A stretch of DNA of 64,000 nt from Nitrospinaceae bacterium (GCA_029261575.1 JAJDBD010000059.1:16182-80181), one strand, 5' to 3'. Positions 1,732-49,215 are shown, numbered from the stretch's first letter. Notes: generated from the sequence alone by a model not told the origin. Numbers and translations are program-made.

Positions 1732-2005
1732 AAAAAAATCCCCGATCCCTTTTGGGAGGGATGGGAGAAACTGCGTTACCCGGAAAAATTTGCTTCACCT
1801 CTTGTACTTCCCGAAGAGTTTGTGAAGCCTGTTCAGAGCAGGTTTTCTGGCTTCCGGATCGGGCTACTCCCAAGCTCCTTCCCGTTAAAAAATAACAGTG
1901 GATTTGCTGGTTTCGTCCCCGGTTACAGCGGCGGGTCCGCGACGGATTTGCACCGTCTTCCCTTGCGTCTGTTCAGGACAATTGCATTTCAAATCAGAGT
2001 ATCAA
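1732..2005 (-). promoter_or_regulatory. cobalamin (B12) riboswitch with intrinsic-terminator expression platform
   Basis: The minus strand reads AGGGAAGACGGTGCAAATCCGTCGCGGACCCGCCGCTGTAACCGGGGACGAA (rc ~1912-1963), then CCACTG (rc 1896-1901), CGGGAAGG (rc 1877-1884) and a B12 box GAAGCCAGAAAACCTGC (rc ~1838-1856). A C-rich/G-rich hairpin plus U8 follows (rc 1731-1770), directly before the TTG start at 1729. The 5' boundary is approximate. Confidence 0.8.
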
Positions 2006-2047
2006 ATAACAATGGCTTGTCAATATGGGAATGGATTGGGCGAATCG

Positions 2048-20704: not shown

Positions 20705-22474
20705 ATGGATTCATATTTTGAAAAAGGCGTGAAGCTGGAAGGCGTTCTGAAAGCTAAAAATCCCGTTCGTCTGGACGGAGAGTTTCGCGGCGAGGTGGAG
20801 TCTCAGGGATTATTTGTGGTCGATGGCTCTGGATTGTTCGTGGGGAATATACAGTCCTACGATCTTACCAATAAAGGAGTCATTGAGGGGGATATCAGCG
20901 CCTCCAATAAAATCGATTTAAAAAGCCAAAGCCAACTCTGCGGAGACATAACGGCCTATCAATTCGCCATAGAGGAAGGAGCGGGTTTTAATGGTCGTTG
21001 CCAAATGGCCAAGGCCCCGAAGGACAAACTGTCCACCACCCCTCCCGAAGAAACAATCTCTCAGAAAAAGAAATCGAAGAAAAAACGGTCCAACGATTCC
21101 GCCCCGTCTCCGAAGGTTAAGAAGGCATTCAAATTTGGGAGACGCGTTGCGGGAGTGGCGCTTCTGATCGGCCTCGCGGTTTTGATTTGGAGTGGGAGCG
21201 ATTATTTTTTGAAAACGTCTAAAGGCCAGGTGGAAATTCATCTTGAAAATGCCGTCGTATTTGTCCAGGCCGGAAAACTACCGGAGGCGATCAAGGAGTT
21301 CAACCGGGCCGTCGAAATACGACCCCGTGATCCCAGGGCCTATCTTGGGCTGGCCGAAATACATATCGATAAAAAGAGATTTCATAAGGCGCGTTCTCCA
21401 TTGAAGAAAGCCATAAAACTGGCTCCGAAAACGGCCTTATACCATGTGCGGCTGGCGGACGTTTATCGGGCCGAAAAGCGTTGGGAAGAGGCGTTGGACG
21501 AGTACAAAACCGGAGTGAAGCTGGATCCGAAAAATCATTCGGCATTTTATGGAATGAGCCAGGTTTACGAGGAACAGGAGAAGCCGGACCAGGTCGTTTC
21601 CGCCTTACAGCAAGCGGTGAAGTTGGCTCCAGAAGTTTTTGAATTTCGCAAGGCTCTGGGAAAGGGATTGATCCGGCAGGGGAAAAAATTAAAAGGCGCG
21701 CGGCAATTTCAGGAGGCTTTAAAAATACGTCAAGACGATCCGTCGTTTATCATTCAGACGGGAGAGGCGCTCCTGGAATTAAATTACAAGCAGGAAGCTT
21801 ACCGATACTTTAAACAAGCCGCGTTACTTTTGCCTCAGGATTTTCAGGGACAAATTCGCGCCGAGGATTGGTATTTTGAGAAAAACGTGCTGGATGATTT
21901 TATTAAATCCCAAACCGCCAAAAGCGTAGAAACAAACGAGGTCGTTTCCGAAAAGGAATTGAGCGATCCGGCGCCGGTTGAGAAAGAATCGGAATTGAAC
22001 CTGGCCGATCAACCTGAAAATCCTGAAATTCTTCTGGCGGTGGGCCGGGAAAACTTGGCGGAAAAAAATTACGCCGACGACCTCGACGCTTTAAAAACAG
22101 CCGAGGCGGCGGCGCCGGGCGATCCTCAAATTCAACTGGCGATGTGCAACGCCTATCGGAAAAAAGTTTTTTACACGGCGGGAATTGTGCATTGCCAAAA
22201 AGCCCTGGAACTCAAGAAGGATTATTACGAGGCCATGAACCGCCTCGCCTGGCTGTATGCAAAAAAGAAAATCAACCTGGACGAAGGAATCGCCTTATCG
22301 CAAAGGACTCTCGAAAAATTCCCCGAAAAACACGAGTACATCGACACCTTGTCTGAATTGTATTTTGCCAAAGGCGAAGCGGAGAAGGCAGTGGAAAGTA
22401 TGCAGGTCGCTATCAAGTTGGCGCCGGGGAAAAAATATTACCAGCGTCAATTAGAACGGTTCGAAAAAAAATAA
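20705..22474 (+). CDS. bactofilin-domain / TM / TPR-repeat fusion protein
   Basis: 589 aa. Residues ~1-100 carry the bactofilin beta-helix pattern, ending FAIEEGAGFNGRCQM. A K/S-rich linker and one TM (VAGVALLIGLAVLIWSG) follow, then ~400 aa of TPR-like repeats. Confidence 0.75.
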   Translation: MDSYFEKGVKLEGVLKAKNPVRLDGEFRGEVESQGLFVVDGSGLFVGNIQSYDLTNKGVIEGDISASNKIDLKSQSQLCGDITAYQFAIEEGAGFNGRCQMAKAPKDKLSTTPPEETISQKKKSKKKRSNDSAPSPKVKKAFKFGRRVAGVALLIGLAVLIWSGSDYFLKTSKGQVEIHLENAVVFVQAGKLPEAIKEFNRAVEIRPRDPRAYLGLAEIHIDKKRFHKARSPLKKAIKLAPKTALYHVRLADVYRAEKRWEEALDEYKTGVKLDPKNHSAFYGMSQVYEEQEKPDQVVSALQQAVKLAPEVFEFRKALGKGLIRQGKKLKGARQFQEALKIRQDDPSFIIQTGEALLELNYKQEAYRYFKQAALLLPQDFQGQIRAEDWYFEKNVLDDFIKSQTAKSVETNEVVSEKELSDPAPVEKESELNLADQPENPEILLAVGRENLAEKNYADDLDALKTAEAAAPGDPQIQLAMCNAYRKKVFYTAGIVHCQKALELKKDYYEAMNRLAWLYAKKKINLDEGIALSQRTLEKFPEKHEYIDTLSELYFAKGEAEKAVESMQVAIKLAPGKKYYQRQLERFEKK

Positions 22475-32946: not shown

Positions 32947-33798
32947 TTAATCCAGGATGGTATTGTTCATGTTTGCCTGTTTGGTGATCGCCTTGGTGAT
33001 ATTGGCGTCGATGAGGTAGGCGTTTCTAAGGTTGGCTTTTGTGAAGTTGGCGCCGTGCAGGTTGGCTTCGAGAAGAAACGTGTTTTCCAGGTTGCATCCT
33101 TCGAAATTCGCGTAGGTTAGATCCACGCCTTCCAGATTGGTTCCGGAAAAATCGACTTCCTGCCCATGGCAATCTTTCAGTTCGCTCCCTGTCAGATTGG
33201 CGCTTGTGAGGTTGACCTTTTCCAGGGTGCATGAGTTCATGTCCGCGTACTTTAATACGGCCCCATGGAGATCGGCGTCGCTGATTTTGGCGAAACTAAG
33301 ATCCGTTCCTCTGGCGTTGACCCCCTTCCAGTCCGATTTGGAAATTTTCATTTCCTTCATATAGCAATACATCATCCGGGCGAAAGAGAAATCCCCGCCT
33401 TCAACGACGCAGGAAAAAAAACTGGAATGGTTCAGGGTGGCGCCCCGGAAATCGCACTTCTGGAACTGGGAGGCGTCGAAGCTTGCGTTGAGTATTTTTG
33501 CGTTTACAAAATTGCAATTTGTGAATGTGGCGTCTTCAAAACTGGATTCTTCCAGTTCCGCGTTGCTGAAGTTGATATTGGTCAAATGCGCATTTTTGAA
33601 GGATGACTTTTTTAAGTTGGCCTGGCTGAAGTTGACTTCGGTAAGATCCGAATCGTCCAGATTGGTTTCCTCCAGCGTTCCGTAGACAAAGGTGGTCCCC
33701 TTTAAACTGATTCCCTTGAGATCGTTGCCGCTGAGATTGATCCCGTCCTGGCAGTTGTTTTGCGCGGTGAGCCGAAGGACTTCGTCGATGTTAGACAT
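32947..33798 (-). CDS. pentapeptide-repeat protein
   Basis: 283 aa, almost entirely A(D/N)LxX pentapeptide repeats. ATG overlaps the upstream MotA-like stop by 8 nt (ATGTCTAA). Confidence 0.85.
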   Translation of the reverse strand: MSNIDEVLRLTAQNNCQDGINLSGNDLKGISLKGTTFVYGTLEETNLDDSDLTEVNFSQANLKKSSFKNAHLTNINFSNAELEESSFEDATFTNCNFVNAKILNASFDASQFQKCDFRGATLNHSSFFSCVVEGGDFSFARMMYCYMKEMKISKSDWKGVNARGTDLSFAKISDADLHGAVLKYADMNSCTLEKVNLTSANLTGSELKDCHGQEVDFSGTNLEGVDLTYANFEGCNLENTFLLEANLHGANFTKANLRNAYLIDANITKAITKQANMNNTILD

Positions 33799-34624
33799 TT
33801 CTATGTTTGTCCGGCGGCAGGAGGGCGTTCATGTTTCTTTGGATTTTCATGGGATTGATGCGGTCGTGAATTCCCATCACGCCGACCCGGATGGCTTTTA
33901 AAAGCGTGGCTTCGCTTTCTGTCCGGGCGTTCAATTTGGCGACGACCGGGGTGATGATCAGGTTGGCGAGCATCAACCCATAAAATGTGGTGATCAGGGC
34001 GGTGGCCAGGGAAGGGCCGATGCTGGAAGGGTCGGCAATCCGCATCAACATTTGAATCAAGCCGATCAAGGTGCCCGCCATGCCAAATACGGGAGCCTGC
34101 ACGGCCATGAACCTGAGGATTTTTTGCCCGGCGTTGTGACGTTCCACCATGGTGTTCAACTCGCGCTCCATGATTTCCTGGATTTCCCTGGCCTGGTATC
34201 CATCGACGATCATGACGATGCCGTTTTTCAAGTGCCGGTTGTTGAGAAGCCGTTCCTCCATTTCCAGTTGCTTCATTCCCCCGCTCCGGTACTTGGTCGC
34301 CAGGGTCATGATTTCGTCGATGTAATCGGCGGGTTGAAGAACGTCTGGTTTGAAGGCGTTGATGATGACCGGCACCATTCCAAGTATTTTTTTCGATGGA
34401 AAGGCGATGAGAGTGGTGGCTATAGTTCCCCCCATAACAATAAACGCGCTATTGAGATTGAGGAAGGTTTCGGAATCGCCGCCGCGAATGATTGCGATGC
34501 TGATTAATAGAATTCCCGAAGCAGCGCCGATGATGGTGCTGAGATCGACCCCGGACGCTTCTTTCGCGGGTTCGATGGACGCGGCTTTTGGGATCGCTTC
34601 GTTTTCTTTTACTGCGGTAGCCAT
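33791..34624 (-). CDS. MotA/PomA-type ion-channel (stator A) subunit
   Basis: 277 aa. Aligns by eye to PomA/MotA: IVDGYQAREIQ and GTLIGLIQMLMRIADPSSIGPSLATALITTFYGLMLANLIITPVVAKL. Confidence 0.85.
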   Translation of the reverse strand: MATAVKENEAIPKAASIEPAKEASGVDLSTIIGAASGILLISIAIIRGGDSETFLNLNSAFIVMGGTIATTLIAFPSKKILGMVPVIINAFKPDVLQPADYIDEIMTLATKYRSGGMKQLEMEERLLNNRHLKNGIVMIVDGYQAREIQEIMERELNTMVERHNAGQKILRFMAVQAPVFGMAGTLIGLIQMLMRIADPSSIGPSLATALITTFYGLMLANLIITPVVAKLNARTESEATLLKAIRVGVMGIHDRINPMKIQRNMNALLPPDKHRNV

Positions 34625-34642
34625 AGACTTCGGTCGTTAACG

Positions 34643-36718
34643 TTAACTGGCAAGTTTTTGAGCTTGGGCTTGCGCCTTGGACTTTAGGCTCATTTCAATA
34701 TAATCATGCAGCCAGGGAACCTCTAGTGTTTCTTTACGGCCGGAAGGAACGAAAACCTTTAATAAATTTTCATCCTCGATCTCAAGGTTTATTTTGGGAC
34801 CCAGCTCGTTGATGAATCTGGATATACAGTTTTGACCTGAAAATGTTTTACAAAAAAGCTCGCCCCAGGAAGTCAGATAAACGGGCGTTACGTTCAACGC
34901 AGCGCTCAGGCGGCGACGGAGAAACTCGTTGTAATCCTCCAGGGACTTGCAGTCGTTGATATTCCCAAGGGTTATATCCCTGGGAAGCGGATAACCAAAA
35001 TCCACGATCAAAAAAATCTTGCGGACCTCGGATTCGGCGAGAAGCTCTTCGTTGGAAATGGCCGCAATATTGATCTTCGTGAGAAATCTGGAGATTTGCT
35101 CCAACATCATGTGCAGGTCGACGTCCTTGATGGATTGTCTTTCCGCCCGCAACAGAATGGTGGTGTTGTTATTGTAAAGCCGGTTGAAACCGGCAAAGGC
35201 TATCAGAAAAGGCAACCCGGTCGCGTTCTGGATAATGTTTTCCTTGGGAACGTGCTCCAGGAAGGCGAGGGTTTTCCCCCGGATTAAAAACCAGTTGCCG
35301 CCTTCCCGGGGTTTTTCGTTGTCGAACAGGAAGGTCAATTCCCGCTCCGAACTTTTTCCGTCCACTAAAACAAATAAACATTCCACCTTGTGGGGCGCGG
35401 TGCGGTAGTAACTGAACAGTTTGCGTCCCAAAAGATGGGTGTCTCGGTCGGAAATCAAGCTTTCGCCGGGAGCGAGGGTTTTATTTGCTTCCGAGATTTT
35501 TTTGTAGGAATTCATCAGGATTTTATTCACCCGATTGCCCAAGCTCACTTTTTGCATTATTTGCCAGTTTTTATAATCGTTCAACTGTTCCAGCTTTTTG
35601 GCGGTCCATTCCCATTCGCGAATCATTGCGATCAGAGTTCGCTTGGTATGGAATTCGGATTTTTCATCCAGTTCTTCAGGAGCGATCTGGGTTCCGACTT
35701 TTAGATAAAACGCCGTTCGCAATGCGTCCACTTCGTTTTCGGATTTGGTTTCCTTGAAGTATTTTTCGACCCGAGCAAACAGCATGAGGTAGGGATCGAT
35801 GGTCAAATATTCTTCGCCGTTGAAAATTAAATTTTTGACCTGGTGGCACAGCAGATTCGATTTGGTTTGGCCGAACATGTATTCTTCGAGCAATCCCATT
35901 TTCATCAGGGTTTTGAAAGGGGACTGAAACGATTTGATCAAGGCCCAGATGGATCCGCCAAAAAATTCTCCCTGGGAAATATCGTCCACGTTCCCCATAT
36001 CGACAAATTCGTTGGGATTCAGAATGGATTGCCCGTTCTGGAGTTGATGGAGAAACTCGGCGTATTGCTCGTCGTTGGTTTCCACCGGAACGATCATCCA
36101 CAACGGGATTTTGCCGGCGGCGATGATGGCCGTGCGGTACATCTCCTCTTTTAATAATTTCGCGAGGGCGGAACCGGTGCTTTCGCTGTCGCTTTCCCCA
36201 AAAATGTTTTTTTTGACTTCCTCAATATCGTTGATAAAAAAATGGACCTCGATGACGAAAGTTTTCCACGCCCATTTTTCGATCAACATCAGCTTCTTTT
36301 TGAACAGCTCCATCCGTTCGGGAGAAATGGAATTTTTGTGGACCAATAACGTGTAATCGAGATCGGATTTTTGGGTCATCGCGATGGACCCCACGCTCCC
36401 CATCAGCAATACGGTATGAATGATAGGCTCCAGATTTTTGGGGCGGCTGGCAATGACGTCTGGAAACATGAATTCGCAGGCGACCTGGGATTCTTTGGTG
36501 AGATTGAAGTTGCCTATTCCGCAGGGAACGTCGCCCTCTACATAACCGGGGAAGCCTTCTTGATTGATATGCAACAACCGCGGGATCAAATAAAATATCC
36601 AGCGCTCTCCCGAGCGCAGGGTTTGAAACGTGCGGGTGAGTTTGAATCGATTGAACCTGTGGAAGGCCTGGCGATTTTCGAATAAAATATCCGTGGTTTC
36701 TGGCGCGGTTGTGGTCAT
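34643..36718 (-). CDS. class I (CyaA-type) adenylate cyclase homologue
   Basis: 691 aa. Colinear by eye with the E. coli CyaA catalytic region: LLHINQEGFPGYVEGDVPCGI, MGSVGSIAMTQKSDLDYTLLV (G-S...DxD), EEMYRTAIIAAGKIPLWMIVP, GEFFGGSIWALIKSFQSPFKTLMKMGLLEEY, DPYLMLFARVEKYF, FYLKV and NWQIMQKV. Confidence 0.8.
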   Translation of the reverse strand: MTTTAPETTDILFENRQAFHRFNRFKLTRTFQTLRSGERWIFYLIPRLLHINQEGFPGYVEGDVPCGIGNFNLTKESQVACEFMFPDVIASRPKNLEPIIHTVLLMGSVGSIAMTQKSDLDYTLLVHKNSISPERMELFKKKLMLIEKWAWKTFVIEVHFFINDIEEVKKNIFGESDSESTGSALAKLLKEEMYRTAIIAAGKIPLWMIVPVETNDEQYAEFLHQLQNGQSILNPNEFVDMGNVDDISQGEFFGGSIWALIKSFQSPFKTLMKMGLLEEYMFGQTKSNLLCHQVKNLIFNGEEYLTIDPYLMLFARVEKYFKETKSENEVDALRTAFYLKVGTQIAPEELDEKSEFHTKRTLIAMIREWEWTAKKLEQLNDYKNWQIMQKVSLGNRVNKILMNSYKKISEANKTLAPGESLISDRDTHLLGRKLFSYYRTAPHKVECLFVLVDGKSSERELTFLFDNEKPREGGNWFLIRGKTLAFLEHVPKENIIQNATGLPFLIAFAGFNRLYNNNTTILLRAERQSIKDVDLHMMLEQISRFLTKINIAAISNEELLAESEVRKIFLIVDFGYPLPRDITLGNINDCKSLEDYNEFLRRRLSAALNVTPVYLTSWGELFCKTFSGQNCISRFINELGPKINLEIEDENLLKVFVPSGRKETLEVPWLHDYIEMSLKSKAQAQAQKLAS

Positions 36719-36802
36719 GGGGTTTTCTATTGCCCTATACGCTTGTTGACGGCGGTGTTTCGGATAGTATAAAGAATTTCAAATAAAAATGCCGTCCTAT
36801 TT

Positions 36803-38398
36803 TTACTTTTTAGTCGGGGCTTCGCCGCTGGGCGCCTGCCCGGCGGGTGGGGCCTTGTCTTTGGATAATTGTTTGCCTAACTGGCCTGCGCTTTCCTCTT
36901 CTTTGGCCACTTCCTTGTCTTTAAGGATTTTAATATCCACCCGACGGTTCAAGGCGCGGTTATCGTCCGAGTCGTTGGGTTTGAGGGGGCGGTATTCCCC
37001 GTATCCGGAGACCACTAATTGTTCCGGGCGAAAATTTAATTTCTCGATGATAACGCGGGCCACGCTGGAAGCCCTGGCGGACGACAATTCCCAATTGGAA
37101 GGGAATTGATCGTTTTTAATGGGAACGTTATCCGTGTGGCCTTCGACCAAAGCCTGTTTCACTCCCTCTTGCATTTGACCCCGGATGGCGTCCAGAATGA
37201 TCTGGTCGGCGCCTTCCAGGAGGTCCGCGCTTCCCGGTCCGAACAGGTCGGAGTTCTGCAACCTTATCAGAATGGTCCGGGTGTCGCTTCGCACCAGGGA
37301 TTCCGGATCGACATTGTCCTTGACCAGTTCGCGCACCCGGTCCAGCATGGCCACTTCCTGGCCGGTCAACCAGACGTTGGATACCTCAATGCGCACTTTT
37401 TTGGACTGGAAAGAAGACAGGGCCTCGGCGAACTTGTCTACGTTTAATTTCGAAACCGTGTACAGCAAAACAAAAATTACCAGGAGCAGGGTGATCATGT
37501 CCGAATAGGTGATGAGGAAATTTTCCAGTCCCGAAGAGAACTCCGCCGTTTGAGCGCCCCGTCCTTCAACGTTCATTCTGGAGTCGAGCCGGCCGGCGGA
37601 GTCTTTTTCATCGGCCATGGACAATTTCATTTCCAGTTCCGTATTCGACTGAGCCAGTTTTTCCATTTCCAATTCCATTTTCCTGCGTTCTTCTTCCAGA
37701 ATGTCCAGATCCTCGCGCAATTCTAAAATAATTTCCGAAGGGAGCATGCCCTCCTGGCCCGGAGCCGCGTCTCCATACAGCATTTTTTCGTAGGATTCTA
37801 TGACGTTGTCTTTTTCGCGTATCAGTTCTTCGTAGTCCACAAGAGATTGGCCGGGATTTCTCCTCAAATTATCCAACTCCTGTCTCAATTCCTTGTTTCT
37901 ATCCTTAAGGACGTCCGTTTCCTCTCCAAGTTTTTTTAGTTTTTTTAGCTCTTTTAAAAGGACCTTTTTTTCACGGTTTTGTTTGGAGCGGATTTTTTCG
38001 TTTTTCTCAATTTCTGCTTTGAGGGCGGCCTCGTTCTTTTTGAGTTCTTGTAATTTTTTTAAAAGTTGCGGATCGGTAGAATAATCCAGGTCCTCGCCGT
38101 CTCCTTCCTTGCCGGACTTCCCCATTTTGGCATGCCTTGCGGCCCTTGCGGCCCAGGCGGCTTGTTGGGCTTCCTTGATTTCCTCCTCTTTGCCTTTGAT
38201 CAGTACCTGGAGTTCCGCCATCTTTTTTTGATTGAGCTTGACGACGTCTTTTATCTTCTTTTCCGTTTTTTCAATGATCCGGGTCTGGTTCTTGAGCTTC
38301 TGATTGGTGATTTTTAGTTGCTCTTTAACCAGTTGTAGGGTTTCGGGATTTTGCATGGTATGATCCGGTTTTTGTTGATTTATCGGTTTAAACGGCAA
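36803..38398 (-). CDS. MotB/OmpA-family protein with long N-terminal coiled coil
   Basis: 531 aa. ~290 aa of K/E-rich coiled-coil-like sequence comes first. Next is a MotB TM with the conserved Asp (ITYSDMITLLLVIFVLL), then an OmpA-like peptidoglycan-binding domain (VEGHTDNVP, NWELSSARA, NRRVDIKI). The start is uncertain (TTG 38398 or ATG 38356). Confidence 0.8.
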   Translation of the reverse strand: MPFKPINQQKPDHTMQNPETLQLVKEQLKITNQKLKNQTRIIEKTEKKIKDVVKLNQKKMAELQVLIKGKEEEIKEAQQAAWAARAARHAKMGKSGKEGDGEDLDYSTDPQLLKKLQELKKNEAALKAEIEKNEKIRSKQNREKKVLLKELKKLKKLGEETDVLKDRNKELRQELDNLRRNPGQSLVDYEELIREKDNVIESYEKMLYGDAAPGQEGMLPSEIILELREDLDILEEERRKMELEMEKLAQSNTELEMKLSMADEKDSAGRLDSRMNVEGRGAQTAEFSSGLENFLITYSDMITLLLVIFVLLYTVSKLNVDKFAEALSSFQSKKVRIEVSNVWLTGQEVAMLDRVRELVKDNVDPESLVRSDTRTILIRLQNSDLFGPGSADLLEGADQIILDAIRGQMQEGVKQALVEGHTDNVPIKNDQFPSNWELSSARASSVARVIIEKLNFRPEQLVVSGYGEYRPLKPNDSDDNRALNRRVDIKILKDKEVAKEEESAGQLGKQLSKDKAPPAGQAPSGEAPTKK

Positions 38399-38592
38399 AA
38401 AAGCTTATAATAAAATGACTTTAAACGATTTAAAATCAACGAAATGTGGTTTTTTTGCTTTACCTAGATTTTATGCAACTCTCTTGGTGCACGTCAATAT
38501 CCCTGTAAGTTTAAATTTTTACAGGGTTTCGTCTTTTCTGTCGCCTGGTTGGACGGACCCATAGGGGCGTTGATTCCAGCGGGAAAACTTTT

Positions 38593-39828
38593 ATGAGCAA
38601 TGGAGTTGAAACCTTTTCCAAGCGCCGGATTGGAGCGGTTTTTTTGTTGGGGTTTTCTTCCGGCCTGCCTTTGGCCCTGACCGGTGGAACTCTTCAAGCC
38701 TGGATGACCGTGGAGGGGGTCGATCTTAAAACCATCGGTATTTTTACCCTCGTTGGCTTGCCTTACACGCTAAAGTTTCTATGGTCCCCTTTGATGGACC
38801 GCTTTGTTCCTCCCTGGTTAGGACGGCGACGGGGTTGGTTGATTCTGACACAAATTGCCTTGATGGGCCTTATTTTTCTAATCTCCCAGGCGTCGCCGCG
38901 GGAGGCCCCCATGCTTTTGGCCGTTTTGGCTCTAGGGTTGGCTTTCAGTTCCGCGTCTCAGGATATCGTGGTTGACGCCTATCGGGCGGATATTCTGAAA
39001 GAGAAAGAGCGCGGACTGGGCGCCGCGACGTCCGTGACGGGTTACCGAATCGCCATGCTGGTTTCCGGCGCGCTGGCCCTGGTTTTATCCGAGTCAATTG
39101 GTTGGCAGACAACCTACCTGTTGATGGCCGTTTTGATGGTCATCGGAATGGGCGCGTCTTTAACGGGTCCTGAGCCGGAAGATAAAATTGTCCCTCCCCG
39201 CACACTTCAGGAAGCCATAACCCATCCGCTGACTGAGTTTTTTAGTCGCAAAGCGGCCTGGGGATTTTTGGCGCTTATTATTCTATACAAAATTGGCGAC
39301 GCTTTTGCCGGCAGTCTGACCACGGCTTTTTTGATTCGCGGGGTCGGGTTTTCGGTGGGTGAAGTTGGGACCGTAAACAAAGGGCTGGGGCTTTTGGCCA
39401 CCATTGTGGGCGCCTTGTTTGGCGGCGCGCTGATGGCGCGGTTAGGATTGTATCGTTCTTTGATGTTGTACGGGTGCCTGCAAGCGGTTTCCAATCTTTC
39501 CTTCATGGGACTCGCGTGGTTGGGGAAAAATTACTACATGATGATTTTTACCATCGCGTTTGAAAATATAGCCGGGGGCATGGGGACGGCGGCTTTTGTG
39601 GCTTTTTTGATGACGCTTTGCGACCATCGTTATACGGCCACTCAATTCGCGTTGCTTTCCGCGCTGGCTTCTTTAGGCCGGGTGTTTGTCGGTCCGCCCT
39701 CCGGCTTCCTGGCTGATGAATTGGGATGGATTACATTTTTCTTCATCACCTTCCTTGCGGCCTTGCCCGGATTGTTTCTTCTTTGGCGCATGAAATCGAG
39801 AATAGAGGGGCTTAAAGCGCACGGATGA
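38593..39828 (+). CDS. ampG: AmpG-family muropeptide MFS permease
   Basis: 411 aa. FLLGFSSGLPLALTGGTLQAWMT and PYTLKFLWSPLMDR. Confidence 0.85.
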   Translation: MSNGVETFSKRRIGAVFLLGFSSGLPLALTGGTLQAWMTVEGVDLKTIGIFTLVGLPYTLKFLWSPLMDRFVPPWLGRRRGWLILTQIALMGLIFLISQASPREAPMLLAVLALGLAFSSASQDIVVDAYRADILKEKERGLGAATSVTGYRIAMLVSGALALVLSESIGWQTTYLLMAVLMVIGMGASLTGPEPEDKIVPPRTLQEAITHPLTEFFSRKAAWGFLALIILYKIGDAFAGSLTTAFLIRGVGFSVGEVGTVNKGLGLLATIVGALFGGALMARLGLYRSLMLYGCLQAVSNLSFMGLAWLGKNYYMMIFTIAFENIAGGMGTAAFVAFLMTLCDHRYTATQFALLSALASLGRVFVGPPSGFLADELGWITFFFITFLAALPGLFLLWRMKSRIEGLKAHG

Positions 39829-40484
39829 CCCGGTTTCTTTATTTGCACGGTTTCGCCTCCAGTCCCGGTTCTTTCAAAGCTTCAAGATTTAAAAAAGAGT
39901 TTTCCAAAAGAGGAATCGATCTGATCGTTCCCGAACTGGACGGGGGGAATTTTGAAAATTTGACGGTATCCAGTCAGATAAAAATCGCCCGGCAATGCCT
40001 GGATCAATTTCCGGAAGACAGGTATGGCTTGATTGGGAGCAGTATGGGCGGCTATTTGGCGGCTTTGCTGGCGCAGTCGAACCCCAACGTTGCGGCGATG
40101 TACCTCATGGCTCCGGGGTTTAATTTCACGGCCCGATGGGCGGAAAAGGTTCGTTGCGAGTTCGGGGAAGACGGGGCGATTCCCGGCTTGATAAAGGTAT
40201 TTCATTATCGGTACAATGATTTTAGATGGTTGAGTACTGGTTTGTTCGCCGACGCTGCGGCTTGGGATCGGCTTGAATTGGACCGGAGTTTGCCCTGCAA
40301 AATTGTCCACGGGGTTCACGACGATACGGTGGATATTGAGGAATCGCGAAGGTTTGCCGCGACCCGGCCCTGGGTCCGGTTGGTAGAGTTGGATTCCGAC
40401 CACACCCTTATGTCGCGTATCGGCTGGATCGTTGAGGATTGTTTTGAATTTTTTTCCGAATTTCATTTGATCAAACAGGTATGA
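39825..40484 (+). CDS. YqiA-like alpha/beta esterase
   Basis: 219 aa. FLYLHGFASSPGSFKA and GSSMGGYLA. ATGA overlap with ampG. Confidence 0.7.
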   Translation: MTRFLYLHGFASSPGSFKASRFKKEFSKRGIDLIVPELDGGNFENLTVSSQIKIARQCLDQFPEDRYGLIGSSMGGYLAALLAQSNPNVAAMYLMAPGFNFTARWAEKVRCEFGEDGAIPGLIKVFHYRYNDFRWLSTGLFADAAAWDRLELDRSLPCKIVHGVHDDTVDIEESRRFAATRPWVRLVELDSDHTLMSRIGWIVEDCFEFFSEFHLIKQV

Positions 40485-41080
40485 GTTTGGAAGCGGAGAG
40501 TTTCAAGCGATTGAGGTTGGCGGTTCGTTTGGCCCGGAGAGGCCACGCGGGACAATTCCGTAAAGGCCGCCTGAAAGAGATTTATTACTGCCATCCAAAA
40601 CGGGTATGTAAGGCTTATTTGAAGTACAAATTTAACTCGCTCGACGGCGCCATTGCCTGTCTTTGCCACGACTTGGTGGAGGATACCGAGTTGAGTTTAC
40701 CTGATATTGAGCGTGAGTTTGGACCCACGGTAGAATCTCTGGTGGACTATTTGACCAAACCTCCGGAGCTTCCCAGCCTGGAATACGCCAGCTTGATGAA
40801 CGGCTGGAGCCTGGAGGCGAAAAAAATAAAGCTCTGCGATATTGAGGATAATATTATCAGCTCCCGGCAAATCTCGCCGGACCGCAGGGAAAGGATGCTG
40901 GGAAAATGGCTGGCGTTCCTTTCTAACCTGAACGAGATCTCCGTCGGTTCCTGCGAAAAAACTTCGGAGTTTTTGGATAAAAAGCGTAAGGTTTGCGAGC
41001 TTTGCCGCGACGAACTGTCAACATGTAATCGACTCCAGGAGAAATCGGCTCTTTTGCAAAACAATCAGTCCACGCCATGA
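40481..41080 (+). CDS. HD-domain protein, SpoT/Mesh1-type (p)ppGpp hydrolase-like
   Basis: 199 aa. ARRGHAGQFRK...YYCHP...CLCHDLVEDT...FGPTVESLVDYLTK matches the SpoT hydrolase (HD_4) pattern. ATGA overlaps on both sides. Confidence 0.65.
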   Translation: MSLEAESFKRLRLAVRLARRGHAGQFRKGRLKEIYYCHPKRVCKAYLKYKFNSLDGAIACLCHDLVEDTELSLPDIEREFGPTVESLVDYLTKPPELPSLEYASLMNGWSLEAKKIKLCDIEDNIISSRQISPDRRERMLGKWLAFLSNLNEISVGSCEKTSEFLDKKRKVCELCRDELSTCNRLQEKSALLQNNQSTP

Positions 41081-48012: not shown

Positions 48013-49215
48013 TCATTTTCTTCGTGATTCCATCATTAAATAAAGCCGAATCAATCGGTTGGGGAAAACCCATTCCCCTTTTTGGTCGCCGGACTTCAAT
48101 GCCTGAAGTTTTTTCATTCGTTGAAGAAAATTTGAAAATTTCTTTTTTTCCGTTACGGTAAGTTTTTTTTCAACTTCGGTTTTTGAAAAGCTCAATTCAA
48201 GGCCCAATGTACCCAATTTTTTCAATATAGAGTGATAATCCGAGCTACGCAAGGCCCTTTGAATGGGTTGGAAATATTTTTTCCCAACGGCGTCGGCGGC
48301 GTCAAACGCTCCATCAAACGAATCGTCATCGTCAATAAGGTCGTCTTTATCGCACCAAAATGTGGCTTCTCCCAATTCATGCATCAGGGTTGGAAGACCT
48401 CCGGAATATTTGTTTAATATTTTCAAAGCGCTTTCTTCAATTCTTATATTTACGCTTGCAAATGCGTCGTTAAAAAAAGAATCGACCTCCAGAGCGCTCA
48501 AGGGTTTGATTTCGGCAATATTAAAGATGCGCTCAACGGAGCGTTGGTGCTGAAGAATTTCTTCGCGTCTTTCGGGAACTCCAGTCAGGATAAGCAATAG
48601 GGGGAGGGGAAGCCCGCTGGTGGCGATTTCGTCCACCATGCTTTTTAATAAAGCGGCAAATTCCGGAGTCCTGGTGATTCCGTTTAGATCGTCCAGAATT
48701 AAGGTCAAGCCTTGGTATTCATCTTTTAATGAATCATAAATTTGGCGCAAGAACGGCAAAAAACCATGGGCCAGCGCAGGCGCGTCCTTTTTGATCGTCC
48801 CAAGGTTAAGTTTAACGCCAAACAAGGTTACTTCCTGAACATACTTTTCTAAAATGCTTTTTACTTTGTCAAAGTTTTTATTGCTATGGGTTTGATGGAT
48901 GATATTAGAAATCACCTGTTCCATCATTTTTTCAATGGTGGTTGCCCCACCAAGATAAACATGAAATCCGGCCAGCTTGTATTCTTCTTCCGCGGCGAAA
49001 CGTATAAAAGCCCCAAGTGAGCTTTTACCCATCCCATATTCCCCGGTTAAAAATATATTTTCCTGTTTTCCCATGGCAACCTGACTGGCGGCCCTAAGAA
49101 TTTGGTCGATTTCGGTTTTTCTACCGACAAACAATTCTCTTGGAACCGGTTTGCCCGGGCTGAACGGGCTTCGAGCTTTGTTGGGTTGCGAGTAATATTG
49201 ATTAAGACCTTTCAT
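48013..49215 (-). CDS. AAA/ORC-like P-loop ATPase with putative C-terminal winged helix (stand-alone)
   Basis: 400 aa. ELFVGRKTEIDQI...FLTGEYGMGKSS (Walker A) and LTLILDDL (Walker B). Visibly AT-richer than its neighbours. Confidence 0.65.
   Translation of the reverse strand: MKGLNQYYSQPNKARSPFSPGKPVPRELFVGRKTEIDQILRAASQVAMGKQENIFLTGEYGMGKSSLGAFIRFAAEEEYKLAGFHVYLGGATTIEKMMEQVISNIIHQTHSNKNFDKVKSILEKYVQEVTLFGVKLNLGTIKKDAPALAHGFLPFLRQIYDSLKDEYQGLTLILDDLNGITRTPEFAALLKSMVDEIATSGLPLPLLLILTGVPERREEILQHQRSVERIFNIAEIKPLSALEVDSFFNDAFASVNIRIEESALKILNKYSGGLPTLMHELGEATFWCDKDDLIDDDDSFDGAFDAADAVGKKYFQPIQRALRSSDYHSILKKLGTLGLELSFSKTEVEKKLTVTEKKKFSNFLQRMKKLQALKSGDQKGEWVFPNRLIRLYLMMESRRK

Follow-up and report, generated by a model that had tools for sequence, protein, structure and literature searches.

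It is under active study, mostly in Pseudomonas, where the genes concerned are unlinked, whether flagellar stators serve as mechanosensors in communication with second-messenger enzymes. In P. aeruginosa the stator protein MotC binds the diguanylate cyclase SadC and stimulates it (bioRxiv 10.1101/483339), and flagellar load raises the level of cyclic AMP (cAMP), which acts on the motor in turn, an effect that depends on MotAB (PMC6855561). We discuss here a locus in a 64,000-nucleotide (nt) stretch of DNA from a Nitrospinaceae bacterium (GCA_029261575.1 JAJDBD010000059.1:16182-80181), referred to as the window, in which the two genes for a MotA/MotB-type stator are interleaved with genes for a class I adenylate cyclase homologue and a pentapeptide-repeat protein (PRP). 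The reading that we favour, and put forward tentatively, is that a flagellar-type stator is co-expressed, and probably physically coupled, with a signalling pair made up of the cyclase and the PRP.

The Nitrospinota are reported to be the major marine nitrite oxidisers, and 97 genes of N. gracilis fall in COG category N (PMC3578206). The core genome of the phylum includes flagellar assembly and chemotaxis genes, and cultures have never been seen swimming (PMC5029188). FlgV is located in a flagellar superoperon in Nitrospinota (PMC11607428), and FliO is also present (PMC12403147). The literature on Nitrospina adenylate cyclases, on class I cyclases with MotA or MotB, and on cyclase, MotAB and pentapeptide proteins together yielded no description of such a system, in agreement with the initial annotation of the window, which knew of none of this composition. 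Each of the proteins belongs to a known family, and it is the combination of stator, cyclase and PRP that appears to be undescribed, as does the association of pentapeptide repeats with a class I cyclase.

The four-gene block and its stator subunits

Positions 32947-38398 of the window hold four consecutive open reading frames (ORFs) on the minus strand, and the ORF listing finds all of them at the coordinates given in the initial annotation, head to tail, with gaps of 84 nt between genes 1 and 2 and 18 nt between genes 2 and 3, and with the stop of gene 3 and the start of gene 4 overlapping by 8 nt (ATGTCTAA). The family assigned to each of the four proteins is upheld by Pfam and NCBIfam profile matches. 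The genes are as follows.

36803-38356, minus strand: gene 1, MotB/PomB-like stator B subunit, probably 517 amino acids (aa), with MotB_plug and OmpA domains and one transmembrane (TM) segment
34643-36718, minus strand: gene 2, soluble class I adenylate cyclase homologue of 691 aa, with PF12633 and PF01295
33791-34624, minus strand: gene 3, PomA/MotA-like stator A subunit of 277 aa, with PF01618 and four TM segments
32947-33798, minus strand: gene 4, soluble PRP of 283 aa, with PF00805

The MotB-type TM segment and OmpA domain first described for gene 1 stand, and its start probably does not. The TTG at 38398, which would give a protein of 531 aa, is unsupported by the orthologues, every one of which begins at the methionine of the ATG at 38356. 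Gene 1 is therefore probably 36803-38356, encoding 517 aa rather than 531 aa, and the N-terminal arm is about 270 aa and not about 290 aa long.

The gene order is B subunit, cyclase, A subunit, PRP, with two functional pairs interleaved and not side by side. This order is found, with no insertion inside the block, at 10 of 12 Nitrospinota loci, the ten being those of the window, N. gracilis, the OFTM324 metagenome-assembled genome (MAG), genomes of 3.37 Mb and 4.0 Mb, a groundwater lineage, Ca. Nitrohelix and three others. Across these loci the gap between the cyclase and MotA-like genes is 1-34 nt and the junction between the MotA-like and PRP genes ranges from -8 to +8 nt. Genes for DUF2784, SLFN_AlbA_2 and HD_4 proteins have been gained or lost just outside the block, never inside it. 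Mean pairwise identity in the four-gene loci is 65% for the MotA-like protein, which is the most conserved of the four, 57% for the TM and peptidoglycan (PG)-binding part of the MotB-like protein, 56% for the cyclase, 51% for the PRP and 37% for the N-terminal arm of the MotB-like protein. The nearest relative of the cyclase, at 90% identity, is in a Nitrospinaceae MAG, and its named relatives are all from Nitrospina or other Nitrospinota. With the same order and tight spacing kept despite mean identities of 37-65%, the four-gene arrangement is more than chance. The linkage and operon-like organisation proposed for the block thus hold in related genomes. The view of the block as self-contained is right as regards the conserved order, but the block is not indivisible, as the two remaining loci, L090 and L092, keep the cyclase and PRP genes only.

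With regard to the A subunit, gene 3 encodes a protein with a MotA_ExbB domain (PF01618, 93.9 bits), four TM segments and the two prolines characteristic of MotA/PomA proteins. These prolines, P178 and P226, align with P173 and P222 of E. coli MotA, while R113 and E124 align with R90 and E98 of E. coli MotA and with R88 and E96 of a manually entered PomA sequence, the residues known to contact FliG in flagellar stators. Among 121 Nitrospinota sequences R113 is kept in 120, and E124, P178 and P226 in all 121. With the rotor-contact Arg and Glu and both prolines kept, in a phylum that encodes flagella, the A subunit looks able to engage a rotor and the stator looks to be of flagellar type. T185 and T212-T213 match T158 and T185-T186 of PomA, where E. 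coli MotA has Ala and Gly-Thr, and these threonines hint at Na+ coupling, so that the stator is possibly Na+-driven. The best NCBIfam models for this protein are those of flagellar stators, and the scores all fall below cutoff (PomA 192 against 341 bits, MotP 178 against 394, MotA 144 against 340). A search for MotA homologues gave 120 orthologues of gene 3 at 64-100% identity and no paralogues, though it was not a stator inventory genome by genome.

The MotA-like protein also has an N-terminal extension of about 25 aa (residues 1-25) before the first TM segment, which PomA and E. coli MotA do not have, and conservation among the orthologues covers the first seven residues of this extension (MA.AVKE).

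The B subunit can be divided into three parts.

37553-38356, minus strand: cytoplasmic N-terminal arm, approximately residues 1-268, with long helices and two conserved non-coiled patches
37403-37552, minus strand: TM helix with the channel Asp (ITYSDM; D286 in 517-aa numbering) and plug helix, the MotB_plug match
36944-37246, minus strand: OmpA-like PG-binding domain, a full-length match to PF00691 at 62.3 bits

The MotB_plug (49.7 bits) and OmpA matches lie behind the long N-terminal region, and the NCBIfam score for MotD is 137 bits against a cutoff of 283. A single TM segment, channel Asp, plug helix and C-terminal OmpA-like domain are all present as in MotB and PomB. The Asp of ITYSDM aligns with D32 of E. 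coli MotB and is invariant in 7 aligned sequences, and the SNWELS and NRRV motifs of the PG-binding domain are invariant in the orthologue alignment. However, in place of the short cytoplasmic N-terminus of MotB and PomB there is a helical arm of about 270 aa before the TM segment. None of it is present in E. coli MotB, the only reference B subunit aligned, and to our knowledge such an arm is not a feature of characterised flagellar MotB or PomB proteins.

The arm was found in all ten four-gene loci. Charged residues make up 41% of it, and the conservation profile has two patches, AAWAAR and YEKMLYG..PG.EGMLPSEII. An AlphaFold2 (AF2) single-sequence model places helices at residues 4-78, 96-166, 168-194 and 206-261, with short breaks between them, at a mean predicted local distance difference test score (pLDDT) of about 52-81 over 10-residue blocks, near 80 in the first half of the arm only. 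The model is informative for the arm helices only, as the C-terminal half of the protein has pLDDT below 50 and is unreliable.

The cyclase and its pentapeptide-repeat partner

Gene 2 had been described as colinear with the catalytic region of E. coli CyaA, and the alignment agrees, covering residues 9-671 of 848 at 27% identity. The 691-aa protein passes both Pfam class I thresholds, with 168 bits for Adenyl_cycl_N (PF12633) and 233 bits for Adenylate_cycl (PF01295) against cutoffs of 27. The best NCBIfam class I model, NF006981, gives 438 bits, below its equivalog cutoff of 802, and the last 175 aa or so of the CyaA regulatory domain are absent, so the full enterobacterial C-terminal domain is not present. 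By its profile matches gene 2 is a member of a divergent class I cyclase subfamily, and conversion of ATP to cAMP is its predicted activity. We know of no characterised class I cyclase outside the Gammaproteobacteria.

The nucleotidyltransferase motif that had been noted is also present.

36356-36400, minus strand: catalytic nucleotidyltransferase motif G107-S108...S118-D119-L-D121 (GS...SDLD)

G107, S108, S118 and D119 do not vary across 121 Nitrospinota sequences, of which 120 also have D121. The 30 invariant columns of a 21-sequence family alignment are all present in the gene 2 product, as they must be by definition, the window protein being one of the 21.

Two residues past D121, just outside the motif span, is T123 (window 36350-36352). 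This position is Thr in 136/136 Nitrospinota sequences and Trp in 140/147 other representatives. The corresponding Trp of E. coli, W118, is reportedly important in catalysis, and Thr in place of Trp could change activity or nucleotide specificity.

The AF2 model of the cyclase has a pLDDT of 85.4. Its best Foldseek matches in the PDB are the Pol beta-type nucleotidyltransferases AadA/ANT, MNT, GlnE and HalB, with probabilities as high as 0.99, though the E-values are weak (0.01-0.3); no class I cyclase structure is detectable in the PDB by sequence. As modelled, the protein keeps a Pol beta-like nucleotidyltransferase fold.

The product of gene 4 consists of pentapeptide repeats throughout, with 197 bits to PF00805 over 10 stretches and 158 bits to PF13599, and tandem A(D/N)LXX repeats cover the protein. 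It has no TM segment, and every one of the 12 Nitrospinota loci encodes it at 283-284 aa.

The association of the two proteins extends beyond this phylum. A search of 1.84 billion representative proteins gave 1148 class I cyclase homologues, in size classes of about 660-700, 940 and 1300 aa. Among 147 non-Nitrospinota representatives there are 24 in which more than 400 aa precede the catalytic motif, and in all five of these that were scanned in Pfam there are pentapeptide repeats directly N-terminal to the cyclase domains. PRP matches also lie inside the cyclase ORF in further metagenomic loci. The homologues of about 1300 aa in other lineages, a large class (loci L037, L039, L046-L048, L059, L068, L073, L077 and L081; proteins P0139, P0150, P0171, P0161 and P0195), have a helical (HEAT-like) region of about 450 aa, then pentapeptide repeats and then the cyclase, and such fusions appear to be uncharacterised. 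No convincing TM segments were found in the fused proteins, and a rough neighbour-joining (NJ) tree, drawn without support values, places them in a clade of their own, apart from the Nitrospinota cyclases.

Within the Nitrospinota, L090 (2640-5630) and L092 (10001-12934, in the complete 2.53-Mb genome CP070799.1) have the cyclase gene followed by the PRP gene only. They are at the syntenic locus, with the genes for AmpG and a UPF0227 hydrolase on one side and the FGE-sulfatase gene on the other, and have no stator genes; no remnants of these were found in L090 by tblastn or among the called genes of L092. An NJ tree joins the cyclases of these two lineages as sisters (bootstrap 74), in a basal position relative to those of the other Nitrospinota (bootstrap 66). 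Parsimony does not settle whether the stator genes were gained or lost, but loss seems mechanistically easier, because gain needs two partner genes to be inserted on either side of the cyclase gene. Given the fusions elsewhere and the stator-less Nitrospinota loci, the cyclase and PRP are, as far as gene content can tell, an independent and recurrent stable pair that works without a stator, and the stable core of the system.

Possible roles of the stator

In the reading that we favour, the stator would be an A5B2-type homologue of PomAB and MotAB and the cyclase-PRP pair would be the signalling core. In most Nitrospinota the arm of the B subunit, projecting from the cytoplasmic face of the A ring, would wire the pair to the stator and is its likely docking element. 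The state of the stator, be it rotor engagement, load or ion flux, would then set the rate of cAMP synthesis, or else cAMP synthesis would be localised to the motor, and the likely role would be to couple motility or surface contact to cAMP signalling. In all four proteins the residues on which the functions of their families depend are kept.

Several observations weigh against this reading. The case for coupling is wholly genomic, as what ties the stator to the cyclase is the adjacency of their genes. Synteny across the phylum takes in the whole neighbourhood, and part of the order conservation is therefore due to inheritance and not to independent selection. The stator-less lineages keep the cyclase and PRP, and the cyclase thus does not need the stator. 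Of the 195 cyclase positions that do not vary among the four-gene loci, their cyclases share 185; the 10 that differ in both lineages, like the 3 of 52 in the PRP, are scattered, and no interface can be inferred from them. Lastly, a survey of class I cyclases in other lineages, which the initial annotation had proposed, found a MotA- or MotB-like ORF (phmmer E <= 1e-5) near none of 80 loci, the top-ranking ones among at least 488 matches, in flanks of as much as 10 kb to either side (several contigs being only 2-6 kb long). In this sample the link between stator and cyclase would seem to be specific to the phylum, with rare cases elsewhere possible. Neighbour clustering also found no recurrent partner genes, stator-like or other, around the 80 cyclases.

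The same facts can be read as an ordinary flagellar stator, sole or accessory, among whose genes a rearrangement has interleaved an unrelated cyaA-PRP pair, the order being kept since by synteny and shared transcription with no coupling. This is possible, and is close to an alternative that the initial annotation itself had raised, though on balance we think it unlikely. It would account for a stator in which the rotor-contact residues, prolines, plug, channel Asp and PG-binding domain are all intact and conserved, in a phylum with flagellar genes (PMC3578206, PMC5029188, PMC11607428, PMC12403147), and it fits with the syntenic flanks and with the cyclase-PRP pair of L090 and L092 working without stator genes. 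It does less well with the arm of the B subunit, which is absent from E. coli MotB, is not known from characterised flagellar MotB or PomB proteins, and is present with its conserved patches in 10/10 four-gene loci. Nor does it lead one to expect B before A with a gene between them, unlike the overlapping motA-motB of E. coli, junctions that are very tight or overlapping, or a block that has stayed free of insertions in 10 genomes while its flanks took them.

A stronger form of coupling can also be considered, with the stator a transducer that directly gates cAMP: a dimeric arm on the PG-anchored B subunit would hold the cyclase and PRP under the rotating A ring, and engagement, load or ion flow would be converted into cAMP. 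We regard this as unlikely. If it were true, it would be the first genetically hard-wired machine leading from a stator to a second messenger, and pentapeptide-repeat proteins would gain a defined role as cyclase adaptors.

The initial annotation had preferred a motor dedicated to controlling the cyclase or to being controlled by it. Taken as a 5:2 unit that never engages the flagellar rotor and might sense, for example, the envelope, ion-motive force or the state of the peptidoglycan, we consider this decidedly unlikely. It was correct that there are no flagellar, Tol or Ton genes nearby, as none were found in the approximately 40 kb scanned around the block, and the arm and gene order are indeed non-canonical. 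Neither subunit reaches the cutoff of a curated flagellar equivalog (192/341 for PomA and 137/283 for MotD), and the divergent neighbour is a muropeptide transporter of the AmpG family, as had been proposed (38593-39828, plus strand; TIGR00901, 503 bits against a cutoff of 350). However, stator genes are often located away from flagellar clusters, and the absence of adjacent flagellar genes does not make the motor non-flagellar when the A subunit keeps the FliG-contact Arg (120/121) and Glu (121/121) and flagella are encoded. Without a rotor-like partner that conservation would be difficult to account for. The A subunit also has the highest mean identity of the four proteins, and the cyclase-PRP pair dispenses with the stator in two lineages. 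AmpG is divergent from the PG-binding B subunit, and is present at every Nitrospinota locus examined, the stator-less ones included, so it is probably without a functional tie to the stator.

A Zorya-like defence module had also been suggested, and a Hailong-like one (a nucleotidyltransferase with a pentapeptide effector) can be added to it, but anti-phage defence is very improbable. Gene 1 does match the PADLOC ZorB models (best E 2e-22), but these are generic MotB models and genes 2-4 have no PADLOC match; the A subunit, at 277 aa, has no ZorA-type tail, ZorC and ZorD are absent, and the locus has a fixed core-genome position across the phylum and is not a variable island, so we reject Zorya. 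We also reject Hailong, for which there are weak matches of the PRP to NCBIfam HalA (50 bits against a cutoff of 250) and of the cyclase model to HalB in Foldseek (E 0.2-0.4), as these reflect only the pentapeptide repeats and the shared Pol beta fold, and the PRP has no TM segment. A Tol-Pal or Ton type was likewise rejected, as gene 3 gives 25.8 bits to TolQ against a cutoff of 221 and the B subunit is of MotB_plug plus OmpA type.

If the reading that we favour is right, the interleaved operon is a compact four-protein system for direct coupling of a stator to a cyclase, and one that is tractable in E. coli cya mutants. The association of pentapeptide repeats with cyclases, fused or adjacent, points to a new regulatory partner of class I cyclases, and a link between cAMP and the motor could be part of the control of motility or attachment in Nitrospinota.

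Flanking features and comparison with known systems

The convergent neighbour of the block is a gene for an FGE-sulfatase-domain protein. Between gene 1 and the divergent ampG, on the upstream side of gene 1, there is a promoter-like site.

38468-38497, minus strand: TTGACG-18-TAAAAT, 10/12 consensus matches

Scans for promoters and terminators gave site numbers no higher than in shuffled sequence, and this site is a consensus match only. No Rfam family match to a leader RNA was found near the operon.

Beyond AmpG there is a small stand-alone HD_4 protein (40481-41080, plus strand) that resembles the hydrolase region of RelA/SpoT and is flanked by the UPF0227 hydrolase and a PhoB-like response regulator. 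Its gene is present in the window, L001, L089, L093 and L094, and absent from L087, L088, L091, L092 and L095.

Elsewhere in the window are the following.

1820-2006, minus strand: cobalamin riboswitch RF00174 (95.6 bits), the only Rfam match in the window, just upstream of ORF 776-1873 on the minus strand, whose listed TTG start it overlaps by about 50 nt
20705-22474, plus strand: 589-aa protein with an N-terminal bactofilin domain fused to a long TPR array; L094 has a bactofilin-TPR protein of 757 aa
42438-54796, minus strand: Bat/MoxR-type "aerotolerance" cluster with a MoxR AAA ATPase, DUF58, two VWA/BatA-like proteins, TPR proteins and BatD, and inside it an AAA_16/BrxC-like ATPase (48013-49215) and a Bax1-I protein

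With regard to described systems, the stator resembles PomAB, MotPS and MotAB in having an A subunit with four TM segments, a MotA_ExbB domain, the rotor-contact Arg and Glu and both prolines, and a B subunit with the channel Asp, plug helix and OmpA-like PG-binding domain. The Thr residues at the positions of PomA T158 and T185/T186 are those of Na+-type stators. It differs from all three in the B arm of about 270 aa, in the cyclase gene between B and A, in the PRP gene that overlaps the end of A, and in reaching no equivalog cutoff. The usual arrangement is an adjacent motA-motB, whereas B-cyclase-A-PRP is the order in 10/10 four-gene loci.

In P. aeruginosa, MotCD with SadC and the effect of flagellar load on cAMP provide cases in which a stator communicates with a nucleotide cyclase. 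There, however, the genes are unlinked, the direct-contact case involves cyclic di-GMP and a membrane GGDEF cyclase, and there is no PRP and no B arm; the Nitrospinota link is a genomic one, unlike the contact in P. aeruginosa. ZorAB of Zorya is similar in that a motor of MotAB type has a long helical extension in the cytoplasm, used in that system for signalling and not for propulsion. There it is the A subunit that bears the extension, and ZorC and ZorD act as effectors; none of these features is present here.

The cyclase shares with E. coli CyaA and other class I cyclases both Pfam domains, colinearity over residues 9-671, the G-S...S-D-x-D motif and the family-invariant residues, while at 27% identity and with a C-terminus about 175 aa shorter it is well apart from CyaA itself. 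Unlike most other class I cyclases (140/147) it has Thr for Trp. Its gene is paired with that for a PRP and, in most Nitrospinota, lies between stator genes, and does not stand alone. In the pentapeptide-fused cyclases of about 1300 aa the repeats are N-terminal to the cyclase, behind the helical-repeat region of about 450 aa, and no stator genes are nearby. The two modules are associated there as they are here, in the one case as a single polypeptide and in the other as separate proteins.

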